Positions 7,397-30,425 of a stretch of DNA of 32,000 bases are shown here, in pieces. The translations under genes and the position numbers were made by a program. The notes beneath the pieces were generated by a model. That model was given only the letters and a program-made list of their open reading frames with translations, did not search any database and was not told the origin of the DNA. Source of the DNA: an uncultured Acidobacteriota bacterium (GTDB lineage: Bacteria > Acidobacteriota > Terriglobia > Acidiferrales > UBA7541); assembly GCA_963737185.1 (NCBI GenBank), contig CAVTRS010000010.1, forward strand, positions 240,368 to 272,367, given 5' to 3'. Within the stretch, counting starts at the first letter, position 1, and every line of letters begins with the position of its first letter.

Positions 7397-7470
7397 GGGG
7401 ACAGACGGGACGTTTTCCATTTTTGAGGATCGGGGGATATCAGGAAACGTCCCGTCTGTCCCCGGTTTCC
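7397..7470. repeat. 74-bp REP/MITE-like hairpin element (full copy 1)
   Basis: Left arm GGGGACAGACGGGACGTTTTCC (7397-7418) and right arm GGAAACGTCCCGTCTGTCCCC (7443-7463) form a ~21-bp inverted repeat around a 24-nt loop. It sits between convergent genes. Confidence 0.9.
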
Positions 7471-8594: not shown

Positions 8595-8668
8595 GGGGAC
8601 AGACGGGACGTTTTCCATTTTTGAGGATCGGGGCATATCAGGAAACGTCCCGTCTGTCCCCGGTTTCC
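8595..8668. repeat. 74-bp REP/MITE-like hairpin element (full copy 2)
   Basis: Identical to 7397-7470 except for one base in the loop (GGGGGATAT versus GGGGCATAT). Same orientation. Confidence 0.9.
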
Positions 8669-10003: not shown

Positions 10004-10031
10004 CTCACCGGAGCGTTAAAGTTTGGGGGAC

Positions 10032-10052
10032 GGGGACAGACGGGACGTTTTC
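10032..10052. repeat. Solo half-copy of the repeat core (GGGGACAGACGGGACGTTTTC)
   Basis: Exact match to the left arm of the 74-bp elements. It is intergenic, just upstream of the 8729-10003 gene. Confidence 0.85.
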
Positions 10053-10411
10053 TAGGGAGTCCCTCTCTTGCGGGAAAGCCGCAACGCCGCAACTCGCCGA
10101 ACGCACCCATCCGAATCAACCTCTGCCCTCCCCCCTCCCGCCAAAAGTGCCGATCGTGCATCGTTCGAATGACTCCGGATTTTCGCCCCCGAATGGCGCA
10201 GTCGATCTCAAATTAGAATGCATCTCTTTTCGGTTTCCAAATTGAGTGGAATGACTCATCCAATTTAGTTGTTCGGTTTTTCGGCTTCCTAATTTAGTTG
10301 AATGACCCACCAAATTAAGTCTCCCCGCAGAACCACTCACAATCTATTCCCATAAGCCTTGTATTTTCAATCGGTTACGGGGAACACGACCCGGGCGGCG
10401 CGTTCCCAACT

Positions 10412-20995: not shown

Positions 20996-22885
20996 CTAGG
21001 TCAGAGTTACCTTATTGTCCTTCTTCTTGCTCGGAGCCAGGTGATAGCGTGGCTGTTTGTGTTCCTTTTTGATCGAGTTCAGGAATCGAGACGGTGCGAG
21101 TGCAAAAGAAGTCTTCAAATATGTAACAGCAGCATCACGCGTCCTCGCGTGGAACAAATGGAGGTCCTTTTTTGCGCGTGTCATCGAGACATAGACCAGT
21201 CGGGCGGTTTCTTCAATATCCGCAGGCGTTGCTCCCTCTCTGGGCAGAATCCCTTCATCAAAACCCACTGCACAAACAACATCTGCCTCTAGGCCCTTAG
21301 CTGCCTGAAACGTCAGTATTCTTACCTGCCCTTCGGCGTTTTGACCATGGGATCGCAATTCATCGACCCAACTTCGAACTTCCTTCATGAGATCACCGCG
21401 ATTTGACCACAGCCCCAAGTCCCGAGCGACTCGCAAGAGAAACTCGGATACGTTTTTTTTGTCGACTTCCCGAAGAGAACTCAGTTTTTCAGAAAAGTCA
21501 GTGTATAACTGCTCCTTCTCTTTCTCGAAATCGAGGGAGTTCCAAAATGTAAGTCCCTTTTCAATTACTCCGCGCCAAAGGAGAGCGATCAGTGTCAGTG
21601 CCTTTTTGCGCTTTTCCCTCGTCTCCTCTTTCCGGCTGCGCCTGGAAGGAACTGAGACCTCACCGCTTTCACAAATGTATTCGATACATAATCGGAGAGA
21701 AAAATTATCGTTTATGTCCTCCATCCAATCGTCGACCACTTTGAGCAAGGCAATGCCGGTATCGTCAACAGGAGGAGTATGCCTGTAATGAACGTGCCTT
21801 CCTCGTAGCGCCCGCTTAATCTTATCTGCGTATTGTTTGGCAGGTATGAGAATTAGGACGCTATGCTTTGGAACCGATTTCTTAACAATTTCGGATATTA
21901 CGTAAGCCTCTTGGTCATCTGTCGCAACATCGTGAACAATAACTGGTTCCCCGTTCTGCTTGTCCGGGCCAAACGTGGCTTGTGGCTTTTCTTTTCGTGA
22001 AGGGTCAAAACTTTCTACTACGTTCAACGCCGAGTGAAGTATCTTATCCGGGCAGCGTCGGGAGCGGTCCAGACAGAAGAGCTTCGCATCTCTCCCATAT
22101 TCAAGATGGAACTCCCGGATATACTTGGGCGTGCCACCACGAAAACTGTAAATGCTTTGGTCGTCATCGCCTACCACAAACAATCCAGATGTGTGACCTC
22201 GTGACAGCAGAGATATGAAAAGTCGTTGGCCAAGATTAATGTCCTGGTATTCATCAATCAGTAGATGACTCGCCGCATTGCCATATTCATTGCTTGCGAC
22301 GGCATTTTCCGAAAGAATCTTTGATGCCAATAGAATCTGGTCATCATAGTCAATAGCACCGTTCGCGCGCAATATGGATTCGTATTGGACAGTAATCCTC
22401 TCTTCAATACTTTGGGCATTTGGCCGAATTGTTTTCTGACGAAGATCGTTTGCGCGCTTGCCATCGTCTTCCGCACACCCACACAGATACGCTGCATCGC
22501 GGAACAGAACTTCACGCAACCCCCCATCTGTCAACATTGTAAAATCATCGGGCAGACCGAGATCACTTGCGTGCGTACGTACGATCTCTAATCCTAGGCT
22601 GTGCATCGTTGTGATTCTCGTAGGGCGCTTTTCCAGGACAACATAAACCTCATTGTTTTCCTCGTTAGAGATACGTCGACGCATATTTTCTGCGGATTCT
22701 TTTGTGAAAGTAATCACGGTGATCGATTGGGGAGAAACCAACATGGTTTCAACGAGGTATTTAATTCTTAAAGCCAACTGATGCGTCTTTCCAGTTCCCG
22801 GACCAGCCAGCAATAGGAGAGGTCCTTTCTCTTTCCATGGCTCTGCAACGACTTGGGGTTTAGGATCTGAGGTGATCATATGCAA
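20996..22885 (-). CDS. UvrD/PcrA/Rep-like superfamily 1 DNA helicase
   Basis: Walker A 'LLLAGPGTGKTHQ', motif II 'LLIDEYQDIN', motif III 'VVGDDDQSIYSFRGG', 'CLDRSRRC', motif V 'ILTFQAAKGLEADVV' and motif VI 'LVYVSMTRAKKDLHLF'. The ORF starts with TTG at 22885. The first ATG is at 22879. Confidence 0.9.
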   Translation of the reverse strand: MHMITSDPKPQVVAEPWKEKGPLLLLAGPGTGKTHQLALRIKYLVETMLVSPQSITVITFTKESAENMRRRISNEENNEVYVVLEKRPTRITTMHSLGLEIVRTHASDLGLPDDFTMLTDGGLREVLFRDAAYLCGCAEDDGKRANDLRQKTIRPNAQSIEERITVQYESILRANGAIDYDDQILLASKILSENAVASNEYGNAASHLLIDEYQDINLGQRLFISLLSRGHTSGLFVVGDDDQSIYSFRGGTPKYIREFHLEYGRDAKLFCLDRSRRCPDKILHSALNVVESFDPSRKEKPQATFGPDKQNGEPVIVHDVATDDQEAYVISEIVKKSVPKHSVLILIPAKQYADKIKRALRGRHVHYRHTPPVDDTGIALLKVVDDWMEDINDNFSLRLCIEYICESGEVSVPSRRSRKEETREKRKKALTLIALLWRGVIEKGLTFWNSLDFEKEKEQLYTDFSEKLSSLREVDKKNVSEFLLRVARDLGLWSNRGDLMKEVRSWVDELRSHGQNAEGQVRILTFQAAKGLEADVVCAVGFDEGILPREGATPADIEETARLVYVSMTRAKKDLHLFHARTRDAAVTYLKTSFALAPSRFLNSIKKEHKQPRYHLAPSKKKDNKVTLT

Positions 22886-23848: not shown

Positions 23849-23929
23849 AATAGTTGTTCTTCCGTTCGGGCGGTTCGGGCACTCAGTGTTTTATGTGGAG
23901 GCAATCATCCGACTCGTTATGGTGCTCAT

Positions 23930-24781
23930 TTGGATGCTTTAGAGATCCGCAAGCTCGCAATCCTTGCCCTATTTTCTGACGACCTTCTCGCCTCTCTCCT
24001 GGTCTTGAAAGGCGGGAATGCGTTGAACCTTGTATATGGCGTCGGCGCGAGGAGCTCCCTGGATATAGATGTATCACTCGCTAGTGATTTCAAAAACGAG
24101 ACTCAGGCAAGAGACAAGATTTTCGAGGTGCTGACCAAGCAGTTTAAAGCTGCGGACCACACCGTAATTGACCTACGATTTGAACGAATACCACGGGAAC
24201 CTTCGGCAGGCGCCATGCCCAACTGGGGTGGATATGAGGTGAAATTCAAGGTGATTCCAACCAAGCTCTTCCGAACCTTGGGAGGTGATGCGGCAAAAGC
24301 TTCCCGACAAGCGGATGAGATTGGGCCAGGGCATCAAAGAACTTTCAACATTCAGATCAGTAAGGGGGAGCACTGCACCGCTATGCAAGAGGTAGAATTT
24401 GAGGATCACGCTATCCCGGTATACACCCCACCGATGCTCGCAATCGAAAAGTTGCGTGCGATCTGCCAACAAATGCCTGAGTACGAGTTCCGTAAGAACC
24501 CAACTCCGAGGGCACGCGACTTTTATGATATCCACACGATCGTGACGGAAATGGCCGTTGACCTTGCCACCGCGGAGAATTTAGATCTAATTAGCCTAGT
24601 CTTCGCTGCAAAGGCCGTTCCATTGCTTCTAATTTCTCGCATCGGCGAGTCCCGCGAATTTCATCGTCAGGAATGGCCGGATGTTCTGGACCATTTAACA
24701 GGGGTAATTGAGTCATTTGATTTCTACTTCGACTTTGTCATTGGCCAAACTAAAAGGTTAGAAGCCTTGTGGACAGTATAG
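23930..24781 (+). CDS. Nucleotidyltransferase AbiEii/AbiGii family toxin (type IV TA, DUF1814)
   Basis: N-terminal 'LVLKGGNALNLVYGVGARSSLDIDVSL' matches the 'LKGGTAL...R.S.DLD' NTase signature of AbiEii. At 283 aa the size fits the family. It has a TTG start. Confidence 0.75.
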   Translation: MDALEIRKLAILALFSDDLLASLLVLKGGNALNLVYGVGARSSLDIDVSLASDFKNETQARDKIFEVLTKQFKAADHTVIDLRFERIPREPSAGAMPNWGGYEVKFKVIPTKLFRTLGGDAAKASRQADEIGPGHQRTFNIQISKGEHCTAMQEVEFEDHAIPVYTPPMLAIEKLRAICQQMPEYEFRKNPTPRARDFYDIHTIVTEMAVDLATAENLDLISLVFAAKAVPLLLISRIGESREFHRQEWPDVLDHLTGVIESFDFYFDFVIGQTKRLEALWTV

Positions 24782-25630
24782 CCGCCAATCTGCGCTAAGC
24801 TGCGGATTCGACATTCCATTAGCCAAATAAAAGTCATAATGAAATCCAAGCTTGGCAAATTTGGAGTACTCAGATTCTTTATACCCTGCCTTTTGCATGT
24901 AACATCCGATCGCTTGGTGGTACGGATATGCATAGTCTAATTTCTTTAGAATCCCCATCAGGCCGGTGGCCGAAACTTTCTCTCTAGCAGCTTGATAAGC
25001 CGCCAACACTTGGTACACGCCCCCGGCGTACTCCGGACGAACAGTTATGTCGATGAGTGTCCTCTCGATGCCAGTCACATCGACCGTTGCGTCGGTCGGG
25101 TCTTTCATTTTCTCAACTCCAAGGTTCGCCGTGTTCTTGCCGCTGACGAGAACAAACCTCCAGCCATCAGATAAGAAAATATAATTGGACTTTCTCTGTC
25201 TTCCAGAAAATGCCCTGTTTATGCCCTCTTGCGTCATCGACTTTGGTCTGGGCTTAGGGCTTTGCTCGCGATTCACATAAATAGTCTTCGGGTTTTGGTC
25301 CGTAAGGCCATGAAGAAAAACAGCCGTCCCATGCGAGAGATACGATCCAGTCCTCATGGAAAGTGCAATTTGGAAGGGTGATACGTCTCGCCAAGCGTAG
25401 CGCACAAGGCTGCCATATCTTTCAGAGGCAAGCACCTTCTCCTGAAAGTACGTTTTTTCTATCAGGAATTCGAAAAAACCACGCGTTGTTTGGCCGCGCG
25501 AAAGATTCCAACGAAAACGATTTTCTGCAAAGATGGCTGCAATTTCTTTGTGTGAATAGACTTGTCGTCCTCGATCGTCAAAGAACTTAACTATGTCTTT
25601 CCTAGCGAGTTGGATTTTTGATGTGCCCAT
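24758..25630 (-). CDS. AbiEi-like antitoxin/transcriptional regulator (type IV TA AbiEi family)
   Basis: 'GSYLSHGTAVFLHGLTDQNP' and 'VTGIERTLIDITVRPEYAGGV' resemble conserved AbiEi motifs. The start is placed at the ATG at 25630 (MGTSKIQLARKDIVKFF). The ORF could extend to 25669. The 3' end overlaps AbiEii by 24 bp on the opposite strand. Confidence 0.65.
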   Translation of the reverse strand: MGTSKIQLARKDIVKFFDDRGRQVYSHKEIAAIFAENRFRWNLSRGQTTRGFFEFLIEKTYFQEKVLASERYGSLVRYAWRDVSPFQIALSMRTGSYLSHGTAVFLHGLTDQNPKTIYVNREQSPKPRPKSMTQEGINRAFSGRQRKSNYIFLSDGWRFVLVSGKNTANLGVEKMKDPTDATVDVTGIERTLIDITVRPEYAGGVYQVLAAYQAAREKVSATGLMGILKKLDYAYPYHQAIGCYMQKAGYKESEYSKFAKLGFHYDFYLANGMSNPQLSADWRLYCPQGF

Positions 25631-25658
25631 GTGATATGGTATATATACCATATCACAT
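25629..25658. promoter_or_regulatory. Perfect 30-bp palindrome P1 (ATGTGATATGGTATATATACCATATCACAT)
   Basis: Verified base by base as its own reverse complement. Core GGTATATATACC is at 25638-25649. It abuts or overlaps the ATG of the AbiEi-like gene. Confidence 0.9.
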
Positions 25659-25686
25659 TTAGGAGTCAACTAAAAGTTGTTTGTAG

Positions 25687-25718
25687 GAATGAATCAGGTA
25701 TATATACCTGATTCATTC
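25687..25718. promoter_or_regulatory. Perfect 32-bp palindrome P2 (GAATGAATCAGGTATATATACCTGATTCATTC)
   Basis: Verified as self-complementary. It has the same 12-bp core (25697-25708) but different arms. Confidence 0.9.
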
Positions 25719-25789
25719 GCACATGAGAAAGTCCTATATCTACGATGATTTCTGGCGATCCCGGTGAATTAAAGTTCTTCATCCTGTCC

Positions 25790-25821
25790 TGTTGCTGTAG
25801 GTATATATACCTACAGCAACA
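25790..25821. promoter_or_regulatory. Perfect 32-bp palindrome P3 (TGTTGCTGTAGGTATATATACCTACAGCAACA)
   Basis: Verified as self-complementary. It has the same 12-bp core (25800-25811) but different arms. Confidence 0.9.
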
Positions 25822-25970
25822 CGCATAGATACTCTCGTCGGGGATCAATGTGATATTTCGCACGAGACATGGCTTGCGCCGAAGATGTGCTACAACTCGC
25901 CGGGCTTCAGACGACTGATTTAAACATGGTGCTTCCCGGTTGTGATTAAAAATCCAAAGTAACGACCAAG

Positions 25971-25999
25971 AAAAAGGCCCGAACCTCGCGATTCGGGTC
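25971..25999 (-). terminator. Probable Rho-independent terminator downstream of the XRE gene
   Basis: On the minus strand, GACCCGAA-TCGCGAGG-TTCGGGCC is followed by TTTTTC. It lies about 75 nt after the XRE stop. Confidence 0.5.
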
Positions 26000-26074
26000 T
26001 TCACTCACCACCGTGTTGTGATTGGGTTACTGCGCTTTGAACACCGGGTGAGCTATACCGGGAATCGTGGAAAA

Positions 26075-26296
26075 CTAAGGATCCAAACCGCGTACCAAGA
26101 CCGCCATTGAAACGTGAAACACCTTGCAGATCCTAAGAAGAGTGGTAACAGTAATGGGTCGGCCCGTCTCGATCTGCTGCCAGTGTCTTGCTGAGAATCC
26201 AAAGGAAATCATGTCTTCCTGACTATATCCGCGCTTCTTTCGAAGTGCGCGCACGCGCCCTCCCAGCGCCCGAAAGAATTGCTGTTGTTTCGTCAC
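26075..26296 (-). CDS. XRE family helix-turn-helix transcriptional regulator
   Basis: 73 aa. 'LGGRVRALRKKRGYSQEDMISFGFSARHWQQIETGRPITVTTLLRICKVF' is a classic Cro/CI-type HTH. GTG start. Confidence 0.8.
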   Translation of the reverse strand: MTKQQQFFRALGGRVRALRKKRGYSQEDMISFGFSARHWQQIETGRPITVTTLLRICKVFHVSMAVLVRGLDP

Positions 26297-26405
26297 ACAT
26301 AAGTTTGTAGAGTCTCACGAGCAGAAAGACCACGAGGCAGATTAGCTGTTCTGCTTTGGAAGGTCTAGCCGTGAGCGAACCGGCCAACTGCGGAATCGGA
26401 GACAC

Positions 26406-26786
26406 ATGAACCCGATAAAGATAGCTGCAACGATCGCGTTGACGGTCGCGCTGGGGGCGACCGCATATTTGGTGTATGTAATGACGGTGGTCAAATCGGC
26501 GCAAGACAAGGCCGCGGACAGCTGCGCGAGTTGCCAAATGGCGAGGGACAACGCAGCGATGAAGTGGAAGGTGGATGAAGAGAAGATAAGGGCGGCGGAG
26601 CTTGCCGGCGGAGAGCTCGCGCGGTTGGCCGCGGAGCGTGCCTACGCTGGCGACCGCCCGGTGATACTCGGCCCATGCTCCGGCTGCGACTTTCCGCCTC
26701 CAGACTACGAAACGCCAGGCGCGGTTGCAGTACTTGGACTTGTTACATCATTGGTCTTGTTCGGAGTGGCAAAGCGAGTCCACTGA
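26406..26786 (+). CDS. Hypothetical small membrane protein (N- and C-terminal TM helices)
   Basis: GGAG Shine-Dalgarno before the ATG. 'IAATIALTVALGATAYLVYVMTVV' and 'AVAVLGLVTSLVLFGVA' are the TM helices. It is divergent from the XRE gene. Confidence 0.5.
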   Translation: MNPIKIAATIALTVALGATAYLVYVMTVVKSAQDKAADSCASCQMARDNAAMKWKVDEEKIRAAELAGGELARLAAERAYAGDRPVILGPCSGCDFPPPDYETPGAVAVLGLVTSLVLFGVAKRVH

Positions 26787-28787: not shown

Positions 28788-30425
28788 TCACCGGACGTCC
28801 CCGATATTATTGCGGTTGAACATGGGGCGTTCCGGCTCACTTCCAGGCCTCGCCCATTGTTTTCCGCATTGAGCACATCTCATTTGTCCACCAGGGATTG
28901 GTGACACGAGTGCTGATCCGCAGTAAGCGCAAGCCTTCTCTTCGGTCGCGGGCTTGATCGCCAGACTAGGGCTCTGGACTCTCGCGAGTTGCCTTTCCGC
29001 CGCGCCGGAAGATTCATACTCAAGGAGTCCAAGCCTGTCGATGCCCCGCGCGACCAGCACCAGCGCGCCCGCGGCGACGTTCGCGAGGTCGTCGTGCCCG
29101 CCCGTGCGATGGTCGACGGAATCCTTTCCGCCCGAGTGCGTCCGCCTCACAAGCCCGGCGAGTTGCGCCTTCAGGCGCGCATGGTCGAGTAACCGCACCT
29201 GTCGACTGTTCACGGCGGGCAAGAATGAAAGGTAGATGGCGGACTTTGGAATTTCCGATCGTACATAGCTGATACCGTGCTTTTCAAATGCCTCGCGCAC
29301 CCACTCCGCTCCGTAATAATCGCCGGTCACGGTCGAGATGTGCCAGCGCTTCAGTTCGGCGCAAAAATCGAGGACAACGCTGGACGGCACGAACGGCGGG
29401 CGTCTCTCTTGCAGCACGTCGAGCACGCCGGTGTCGTTCTCGGCGTGTGCGATGGCGAGTGTCATCGCGTCCGAGGCGCCACCCGACGGATCACAGAAGG
29501 CGTGATAGGATTCGCCCGGGCGCGGCGCGAGCTCAAGGCACGAGGGCATGACGCACGCGGAAATCGCCTCGACCGTCAGGAAGTTCGCGAGGTCGCCGCG
29601 AAACTGTGCGCCATACTCCGCTGAAGCGGCCTGCGGGTCCTTTTCGTACGCGCGGTCAATGATTTTCTGGCTGACGGTCGGGTTCATCTCACGAGTGGCG
29701 CCGACCCAAACCAGCTCGTCCGTGTTCTTCCCGAAGTTTTTGTCGTGCGCCTCCCACAGCGCGCCCTGCTGCGCGTAAGGTGAGCTGACGCCGAGGTGGA
29801 TCGCGCCGGGGATGTTCGCGCTGCCCTTCTCCATCGCCGAGAGCACCTCCACGTCAGGCGAAGCAGCCTGATCGTCGGTGGCCCAAAAAGCCAACTCGTC
29901 AAAACACGCGCCGATCACTGTATAGCCGCGCACGCTGCGGTAGTCCGACGCGTGGACCTCAATCTTGATGTCGGTCGACAGCTCGATGGAGTCCTTCGAC
30001 TCCGCTGTGACTAGCCGCGCGAGCATGGGGATGTCGCGAAAAAAGCTGGCGACGTAATTGAAGATTACCCCGGCCTGCGCTTTATCCGCGGCGAGGATGG
30101 GTAGAACGCCGACTTCCCCGCGCTGCAACGTCGGATAGTCGCGGAAGACGGCGTTGTAGGTGGAGATGAGCGCCGCGATCCGGCTCTTCCCGCTGCGTCG
30201 TCCGCAGATGAGCCACGCCTTGTGAAATGGTGACTTGGGAGCAAAGCTCCTCCCTGTGTGGCGCGAGAAAATTTGGAACTCCTCGGCGGTCAGCGGCAGG
30301 GCGTACAGGGCCTTGAGGAAAACGCGCCACGCCGACCAAGAATCGCCGTGCGACCAGCGTCGTGAAAACCATGGCCGGAATAACTTCGCATCGTCCATCG
30401 CCTCAATGATCGTCGGTGTTCGCAT
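28788..30425 (-). CDS. terL: Phage terminase large subunit with C-terminal zinc ribbon
   Basis: Walker A 'WLICGRRSGKSRIAA', Walker B 'IGACFDELAFW', nuclease-domain acidic motifs 'AFCDPSGGASDAMTLAIAH' and 'DHRTGGHDDLANVAAGA', and a C-terminal 'CAYCGS...CAQCGKQW'. Confidence 0.8.
   Translation of the reverse strand: MRTPTIIEAMDDAKLFRPWFSRRWSHGDSWSAWRVFLKALYALPLTAEEFQIFSRHTGRSFAPKSPFHKAWLICGRRSGKSRIAALISTYNAVFRDYPTLQRGEVGVLPILAADKAQAGVIFNYVASFFRDIPMLARLVTAESKDSIELSTDIKIEVHASDYRSVRGYTVIGACFDELAFWATDDQAASPDVEVLSAMEKGSANIPGAIHLGVSSPYAQQGALWEAHDKNFGKNTDELVWVGATREMNPTVSQKIIDRAYEKDPQAASAEYGAQFRGDLANFLTVEAISACVMPSCLELAPRPGESYHAFCDPSGGASDAMTLAIAHAENDTGVLDVLQERRPPFVPSSVVLDFCAELKRWHISTVTGDYYGAEWVREAFEKHGISYVRSEIPKSAIYLSFLPAVNSRQVRLLDHARLKAQLAGLVRRTHSGGKDSVDHRTGGHDDLANVAAGALVLVARGIDRLGLLEYESSGAAERQLARVQSPSLAIKPATEEKACAYCGSALVSPIPGGQMRCAQCGKQWARPGSEPERPMFNRNNIGDVR

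Follow-up and report, generated by a model that had tools for sequence, protein, structure and literature searches.

Palindromes with variable but mirrored arms upstream of a convergent AbiE-like gene pair in an uncultured Acidobacteriota bacterium

The stretch of DNA analysed here (32,000 nucleotides, hereafter the window) comes from an uncultured Acidobacteriota bacterium and carries, in an island which starts after a tRNA-Arg and between a UvrD-type helicase and a primase/terminase module, a pair of convergent AbiE-like genes and three palindromes clustered at the start of the regulator gene. The relevant features, with coordinates referring to the window, are the following:

23918..23923, plus strand: -10-like TAnnnT, read from the sequence, 12 nt before the toxin start; putative separate, leaderless promoter
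23930..24781, plus strand: abiEii-like nucleotidyltransferase, putative toxin, 283 aa (Pfam AbiEii, E 1.1e-24; PADLOC AbiEii), convergent with abiEi
24758..25630, minus strand: abiEi-like antitoxin/regulator, 290 aa, with an N-terminal winged-helix-like domain and an AbiEi C-terminal domain
25629..25658, no strand: palindrome P1, 30 bp, proximal, core GGTATATATACC; over the abiEi start codon and probably also the -10 region; the same 30 bp are found in relatives L014-L016
25664..25669, minus strand: -35-like hexamer TTGACT, read from the sequence, 16 bp before the TATATA of the P1 core; putative abiEi promoter
25687..25718, no strand: palindrome P2, 32 bp; orthologous site at -73 in L014 and L015
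25790..25821, no strand: palindrome P3, 32 bp, distal; orthologous site at -176 in L015 and L016, where the arms differ yet are perfectly paired
25978..25997, minus strand: terminator-like stem-loop between an XRE gene and the palindromes; weak (1 found, 1.1 expected by chance)

The product of the abiEi-like gene matches the AbiEi profiles of Pfam (AbiEi_1, E 9.6e-5) and PADLOC (AbiEi, E 6.7e-20). Its structure model (pLDDT 89), in which the helix-strand order of the first 80 residues fits a winged-helix domain, finds its best folds in Rv2827c (1zel) and in the AbiEi of S. agalactiae (6y8q), with an E of 1.6e-6 and 12-13% identity; as modelled, the protein has the AbiEi/Rv2827c fold. A PDB sequence search with an alignment as query returned no match. 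The locus has both an AbiEi-family antitoxin and an adjoining AbiEii (DUF1814-type) nucleotidyltransferase; the bicistronic abiEi-abiEii operon of S. agalactiae AbiE (PMC3985639) is not found here, where the genes lie tail-to-tail on opposite strands, their 3' ends overlapping by 24 nt. The proteins are AbiE-like, and the arrangement is not that of a canonical AbiE operon; convergence of the two genes, absent from the first-pass annotation of the window, is a conserved part of the system (see below).

As to the local setting, the GC content climbs from 0.46 to 0.56-0.62 over 25-27 kb of the window, so that the palindromes do sit at a GC transition, as had been remarked in the first-pass annotation, a circumstance we judge to be local context; the XRE gene lies 250 bp from the palindromes, and no second copy of the tRNA-Arg end was found elsewhere on the contig. 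The helicase gene (20996-22885) has GajB as its best PADLOC match, with no GajA partner recognised beside it, and is preceded by a 184-aa ORF without a family match; on the other side, a terminase-large-subunit-like gene (28788-30425) and, from 31387, a long primase-like frame are found. A dispersed inverted-repeat element with 19-bp arms and a 29-bp gap occurs at 338-364, 7397-7470, 8595-8668 and 10025-10053 of the window; its 19-base arm motif is present 19 times in the genome, making it REP- or MITE-like.

A base-by-base scan found P1-P3 to be exactly perfect, with centre-to-centre distances of 59 and 103 bp, reproducing the coordinates, the 30-32-bp size and the common 12-bp core originally reported; the contact between P1 and the predicted start of the abiEi-like gene was likewise recovered, the in-frame ATG (25630-25628, minus strand) overlapping the end of P1. 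These are the three longest perfect palindromes of the 3.88-Mb genome, the runner-up measuring 26 bp, and the 12-mer core GGTATATATACC has 3 copies in 3,876,333 bases, all in P1-P3. At least 5 of 6 pairs at positions 9-14 from the centre are formed by 12 of the 1371 perfect 12-bp palindromes of the genome, P1-P3 included, and the arm extension of P1-P3 is far above chance. A search of the window against Rfam matched the tRNA-Arg solely, with nothing on the palindromes.

Relatives were collected in two independent ways, from the protein and from the motif. The protein-first set, made of 7 of 101 genomes and the best 80 of at least 581 metagenome loci, comprises 87 loci, near-duplicates included; wherever at least 300 nt of upstream sequence was available a site within one mismatch of the core is present (73 of 73), and 2-4 sites are present in 72 of the 73, in agreement with the link to the AbiEi-like gene initially proposed. 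The motif-first set was obtained by scanning genome contigs for two cores 78-108 bp apart and holds at least 120 loci, an abiEi profile match being found in 101 of the 120 listed and in 68 of the 74 of those that are at least 2.5 kb long. By record the loci are mostly from Acidobacteriota, plus several other phyla; the sites lie 10-320 bp upstream of abiEi and number 1-4 per locus, mostly 2 or 3 (three copies being nothing special), and the core is lineage-specific. When 401 genomes were scanned for the bare core, arms were seen at all 6 loci with abiEi, our own included, and at none of 11 without it; a search blind to the core retrieved 101 paired centres among 14,954 upstream positions, 74 of them with the exact core, against 8 among 25,900 positions within genes. 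The toxin gene was also matched in 149 of the 178 loci with an abiEi match (none in the other 29), invariably on the opposite strand (149 of 149); all 75 representative loci measured have overlapping 3' ends, and in 58 the overlap is 24 or 27 nt long. The family amounts to 806 clusters (50% identity) at E 1e-30 or better, the layout having been checked solely in the fetched loci.

Six long motif-first loci carrying armed or decayed sites without an abiEi match argue against a strict link; among viral cores, arms without abiEi were found in 1 of 12. On one viral contig (L003:3042-3069) a single 28-bp armed core immediately precedes a YdjM-family gene in a neighbourhood devoid of abiEi. No relative was found in the viral contigs and phage records searched. 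Variants of the layout were also encountered: in two loci (L152:2006-2100, on a Terracidiphilus contig, and L151) a second pair of armed sites is found some 170-270 bp upstream of the toxin gene, so that the cassette has operator-like sites at both ends; in L013:2382-3397 and L376:619-1276 an AbiEii-family gene is divergent from, and upstream of, abiEi, with the palindromes in between; further toxin-antitoxin modules adjoin the sites in some loci, and orphan sites stand beside a DUF6088-AbiEii operon in L165:1946-3921 and beside ParDE in L101:1151-2108; the outer neighbour is a second AbiEi-type or DUF6088 gene in L142, L150 and L154; and in three representatives (L048, L059 and L122) the cassette is directly downstream of a ribonucleotide reductase gene.

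More distant relatives occur in 47 plasmid records. Among the 12 loci examined, one of which is on a cultured Bacillus subtilis plasmid, NZ_CP015223.1, 10 are convergent, one has an opposite-strand toxin fragment upstream and one has no annotated toxin; 1-4 palindromes lie upstream in all 12. Perfect arms are mostly 12-21 bp (11 bp at one Veillonella site), and mismatched arms were seen in Phycisphaera and at one Brevibacillus site. Here the core follows the protein lineage, being GCGTTAACGC-like in Burkholderiales, GGTACGCGTACC in Hymenobacter and AGTATATATACT in several Bacilli and in Sulfurimonas, and copies within one locus often have like arms, both of which fit a protein whose half-site spans about 14 bp. 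In some lineages the centre of the core is GC-rich, and the idea of a universal or required AT-rich centre was discarded.

Concerning the promoters, a sigma-70 scan of positions 25400-26450 returned none; in the family, 22 of the 104 proximal sites have TTG[AC] at 25-27 bp ahead of the centre, a placement that does not rank among the top ones in the remaining 156 sites, while in the plasmid loci of Bacillota the -10 hexamer falls within the left arm of the proximal site. Judging from such motifs, the promoter of abiEi probably lies under the proximal site in some members of the family at least, and an inverted repeat conserved with the gene is found at the putative abiEi promoter. Of 47 toxin starts, 21 have TAnnnT at -14 to -11 and 10 have a word resembling a ribosome site, suggesting that the toxin has its own, often leaderless, promoter.

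The anatomy of the arms was analysed on 260 distinct sites, with the core within one mismatch, from 105 representative loci sharing less than 80% AbiEi identity. Positions 9-13 from the centre carry 0.01-0.05 bits of sequence information, yet are paired in 89-94% of cases, where 25-27% would be expected; a preference for A/T is seen at positions 7-8 (0.51 and 0.31 bits) and one for A at position 14 (0.14 bits), and position 15 carries 0.06 bits. The early statement that the arms remain paired without sharing sequence is thus accurate for positions 9-13 and has to be corrected for positions 7-8 and 14, which are biased; the accompanying suggestion, that the core is read specifically and the arms merely need to pair, fits the family data. 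Arm identity between copies is 0.30 within loci and 0.26 between loci, i.e. near random, which rules out a hidden locus-specific consensus.

The arms also have a defined edge. With 24 sites dropped, 236 well-paired ones remain, in which the probability that pairing first fails is 0.01-0.08 at positions 9-14 and rises to 0.25-0.42 at positions 15-16; arm length is unrelated to GC content (rho -0.04, p 0.52, 236 of 260 sites), with a median of 15 in every GC class, and a stability threshold setting the length can therefore be rejected. Mismatches at positions 7 to 15 of the same 236 sites number 30, 12, 5, 2, 4, 6, 9, 22 and 61, a U-shaped profile with the minimum in the middle of the arm; G-T mismatches are not in excess over A-C (30 and 26 overall; 7 and 10 at positions 9-13), and the central loop position is altered in 9 of 260 sites. 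Pairing is kept without sequence and over a minimum length, as would be required of a functional DNA cruciform or hairpin. The spacing of sites has a weak periodicity of 10-10.5 bp (R 0.22), which was set aside since spacing had itself served to select the motif-first loci and related loci do not count as independent.

Boxes of 16 bp that are perfect and match the LexA and parS consensus were taken as controls. At least 5 of 6 pairs at positions 9-14 are formed by 6 of 96 LexA-like and 4 of 19 parS-like boxes, compared, for the abiEi sites, with 178 of the 187 whose 16-bp centre is perfect and with 230 of 260 overall. The extended parS-like boxes, from L231-L246 and our own genome, reach in one case 18 bp per arm, which suggests a background tendency to extend.

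How symmetry persists while sequence changes can be followed by comparing orthologous sites (85-97% AbiEi identity), where, at positions 9-13, double compensatory differences outnumber one-sided ones by 70 to 15. Relative to the divergence of fourfold-degenerate sites of abiEi, the rate of double changes, taken from disjoint pairs, is 0.73 (19 of 195 positions, 16 pairs), 0.59 (16 pairs) and 0.35 (29 pairs); two-step compensation under selection is expected to proceed at a few percent of the neutral rate, by a hand estimate that assumes about 2% standing mismatches. Double changes at 0.59-0.73 of the silent-site rate are too quick for two-step compensation, which argues for one arm being copied from the other and points to arm-to-arm copying as the process that would maintain the mirror symmetry. 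Template switching is an established route to perfected inverted repeats (PMC5941160, PMC8794818, PMC13100816) and would fit the U-shaped mismatch profile. In a toy model of neutral copying, the profile was matched solely with the most permissive setting and at 0.5 substitutions per site, and the step at positions 14-16 was gone by 2-4 substitutions per site in 9 of 9 parameter sets; the loss of the step, albeit in a crude model, suggests that a position-specific force holds or renews the arm edge. The rate of double changes favours copying, whereas the fixed edge favours an additional force.

The system can be compared with several known ones. It shares with S. agalactiae AbiE an AbiEi-fold regulator, an AbiEii nucleotidyltransferase and an inverted repeat over the abiEi promoter (PMC3985639). 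In that organism, however, the operator IR1-IR2, TGTTGCTTTTA-N27-TAAAAGCAACA, consists of two 23-bp halves 3 bp apart, with the perfect 11 bp at the outer ends (PMC3985639), while here the conserved 12 bp are central, there is no spacer, half-sites are of about 14-15 bp, 2-4 sites are present, and the arms vary freely but stay paired. The best structural match is Rv2827c-Rv2826c (MenA4-MenT4) of M. tuberculosis, whose regulator has 293-295 residues (290 here) and 12% sequence identity, and which also has more than one inverted-repeat operator in the promoter region (PMC7319586). The first-pass annotation regarded a triplet of palindromes as undescribed for AbiEi: several operators per promoter are in fact on record for Rv2827c, although the layout does differ, since the genes of that system form an operon and its two pairs of 23-bp repeats have gaps of 13 bp and follow a common consensus (PMC7319586), and ours has zero-gap perfect palindromes, unrelated arms among copies and a convergent toxin. 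Template-switched inverted repeats likewise show arms homogenised by copying and compensatory double changes (PMC5941160, PMC8794818, PMC13100816); those described here differ in being recurrent around an invariant core, with fixed arm length, across phyla and in one regulator family. Finally, self-complementary elements lie over promoter signals in the promoter hairpins and cruciforms of the phage N4 promoters and of an engineered E. coli cruciform promoter (PMC13463272), whereas extrusion is in our case a prediction. A literature search, covering few subscription papers and judged by title or abstract, retrieved no toxin-antitoxin case of a promoter cruciform or hairpin and no description of the convergent AbiE layout or of the core GGTATATATACC, a sequence which appeared in one unrelated paper.

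The palindromes are real, conserved and tied to a large clade of convergent AbiE systems. The two-way association between sites and abiEi and the shift of the core with the protein lineage in plasmid loci count in favour of AbiEi operators, and the sites are very probably the control element of AbiEi, taking the two leading readings together. The first of these, to which we would give an even chance, is that the palindromes are autorepression operators bound as duplex, with their symmetry kept by copying through template switching; autorepression is favoured by the fold likeness to two proven autorepressors (PMC3985639, PMC7319586). The AbiEi-like protein would repress its own promoter through the palindromes, antitoxin and toxin being transcribed separately and convergently. 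Two AbiEi molecules would occupy each site on ordinary duplex, their winged-helix domains reading the abutting half-sites of the core and the remainder of each molecule covering the arm as far as about 14-15 bp while showing little preference for particular bases, and the proximal site would blanket the start region together with the -10. During replication, a transient hairpin would let a change in either arm be transferred to its partner or removed, so that the sequence drifts while the symmetry persists; the operators would set the level of the antitoxin only, the toxin having its own promoter.

Several observations weigh against this duplex reading. Symmetry is not something that a protein bound to linear duplex can sense, and the information at positions 14 and 15 amounts to only 0.14 and 0.06 bits; simulated copying loses the edge at 14-16 though the observed arms are near random identity; and equally perfect LexA-like and parS cores seldom grow arms. 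The assignment to AbiEi itself has against it the six long loci and the viral core with sites without abiEi, and the different construction of known AbiEi operators, whose perfect 11 bp are outermost and 27 bp apart (PMC3985639).

Variable but perfectly mirrored arms of fixed length hint at DNA hairpin folding. The sites may indeed be linked to AbiEi and yet be selected for pairing itself: each would have to be capable of forming a DNA hairpin or cruciform whose stem measures some 14 bp or more, and AbiEi would read this structure or be displaced by it, which would tie transcription of the antitoxin to supercoiling or to the arrival of the element in single-stranded form. We consider this a serious possibility, though not a probable one. 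It would account for the sequence-free pairing of positions 9-13, for the sharp rise of first mismatches at 15-16 independent of GC, for the edge that neutral copying failed to hold in simulation and for the tolerance of the central loop position to change; the lack of a G-T bias over A-C places pairing at the DNA level, sites of 28-32 bp would, by an estimate from energy values, extrude near a superhelical density of -0.04 to -0.05, and cruciform or hairpin control of promoters has precedent (PMC13463272). On the other hand, selection alone predicts, by the hand estimate, a few percent of the neutral rate and 59-73% is observed, so that copying is needed even if structure is selected, and may suffice; the best-tolerated in-stem mismatches are at position 7 (30 of 236), beside the core, where extrusion should suffer most; distant lineages have GC-rich centres; and the AbiEi-family proteins assayed to date, as reported in PMC3985639 and PMC7319586, bind linear duplex probes. 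The selection for structure initially suggested hence survives as one of two live readings, with the qualification that a near-silent rate of double changes implies copying.

A more specific version, which we hold to be rather unlikely, is that the convergent AbiE clade uses DNA structure as a trigger, its operators being kept at the length at which a cruciform or hairpin flips. The flip would occur under high negative supercoiling or in single-stranded incoming DNA, and would alter AbiEi binding or remove the -10 element, shifting the supply of antitoxin while toxin is still made.

A role of the palindromes at the RNA level, as hairpins of the abiEi leader or of some small RNA, appears improbable: each of them is predicted to fold (as DNA) into a long stem with a four-base loop, and P1 touches the start codon, but the sense strand has no G-U tolerance, the -10 inside the left arm in Bacillota plasmids would make the transcript begin within the palindrome, and no Rfam match accompanies the covariation. 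Most improbable of all are the alternatives listed in the first-pass annotation, namely targets of a recombinase or HUH nuclease, a replication or transfer origin or a junction scar, and likewise XRE operators. In their favour one can cite the island with a primase and terminase module beside a tRNA-Arg, the GC step and the XRE gene 250 bp away; they are now largely refuted, since the XRE protein was matched at its own locus only among 213, the 28 of 64 outer neighbours with a Pfam match are mostly of mutually unrelated families, with 5 of 64 of mobility type (1 integrase, 2 relaxase/TraI-like, 1 IS110, 1 coupling protein), no conserved cognate recombinase, Rep or relaxase was found nearby, and the position of the sites relative to abiEi is constant on chromosomes and plasmids of several phyla.

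An operator role is an ordinary idea; a symmetry of fixed length, free of sequence and turning over near the silent rate, is not. AbiE has been described as a bicistronic, autorepressed operon (PMC3985639); with antitoxin and toxin transcription uncoupled, as they would be here, an alteration at the operator would directly change the antitoxin:toxin ratio. These operators offer an unusually clean natural case in which symmetry is conserved without sequence: should the symmetry be a by-product, the way in which template switching shapes a family of bacterial operators could be measured on them; should it be under selection, they would constitute a structure-sensing switch. The activation of AbiE toxins has been called elusive (2026 preprint, 10.64898/2026.01.19.700257), and, were DNA structure truly the trigger, the family would provide a toxin-antitoxin operator selected for pairing over sequence and a testable answer to how AbiE is activated.
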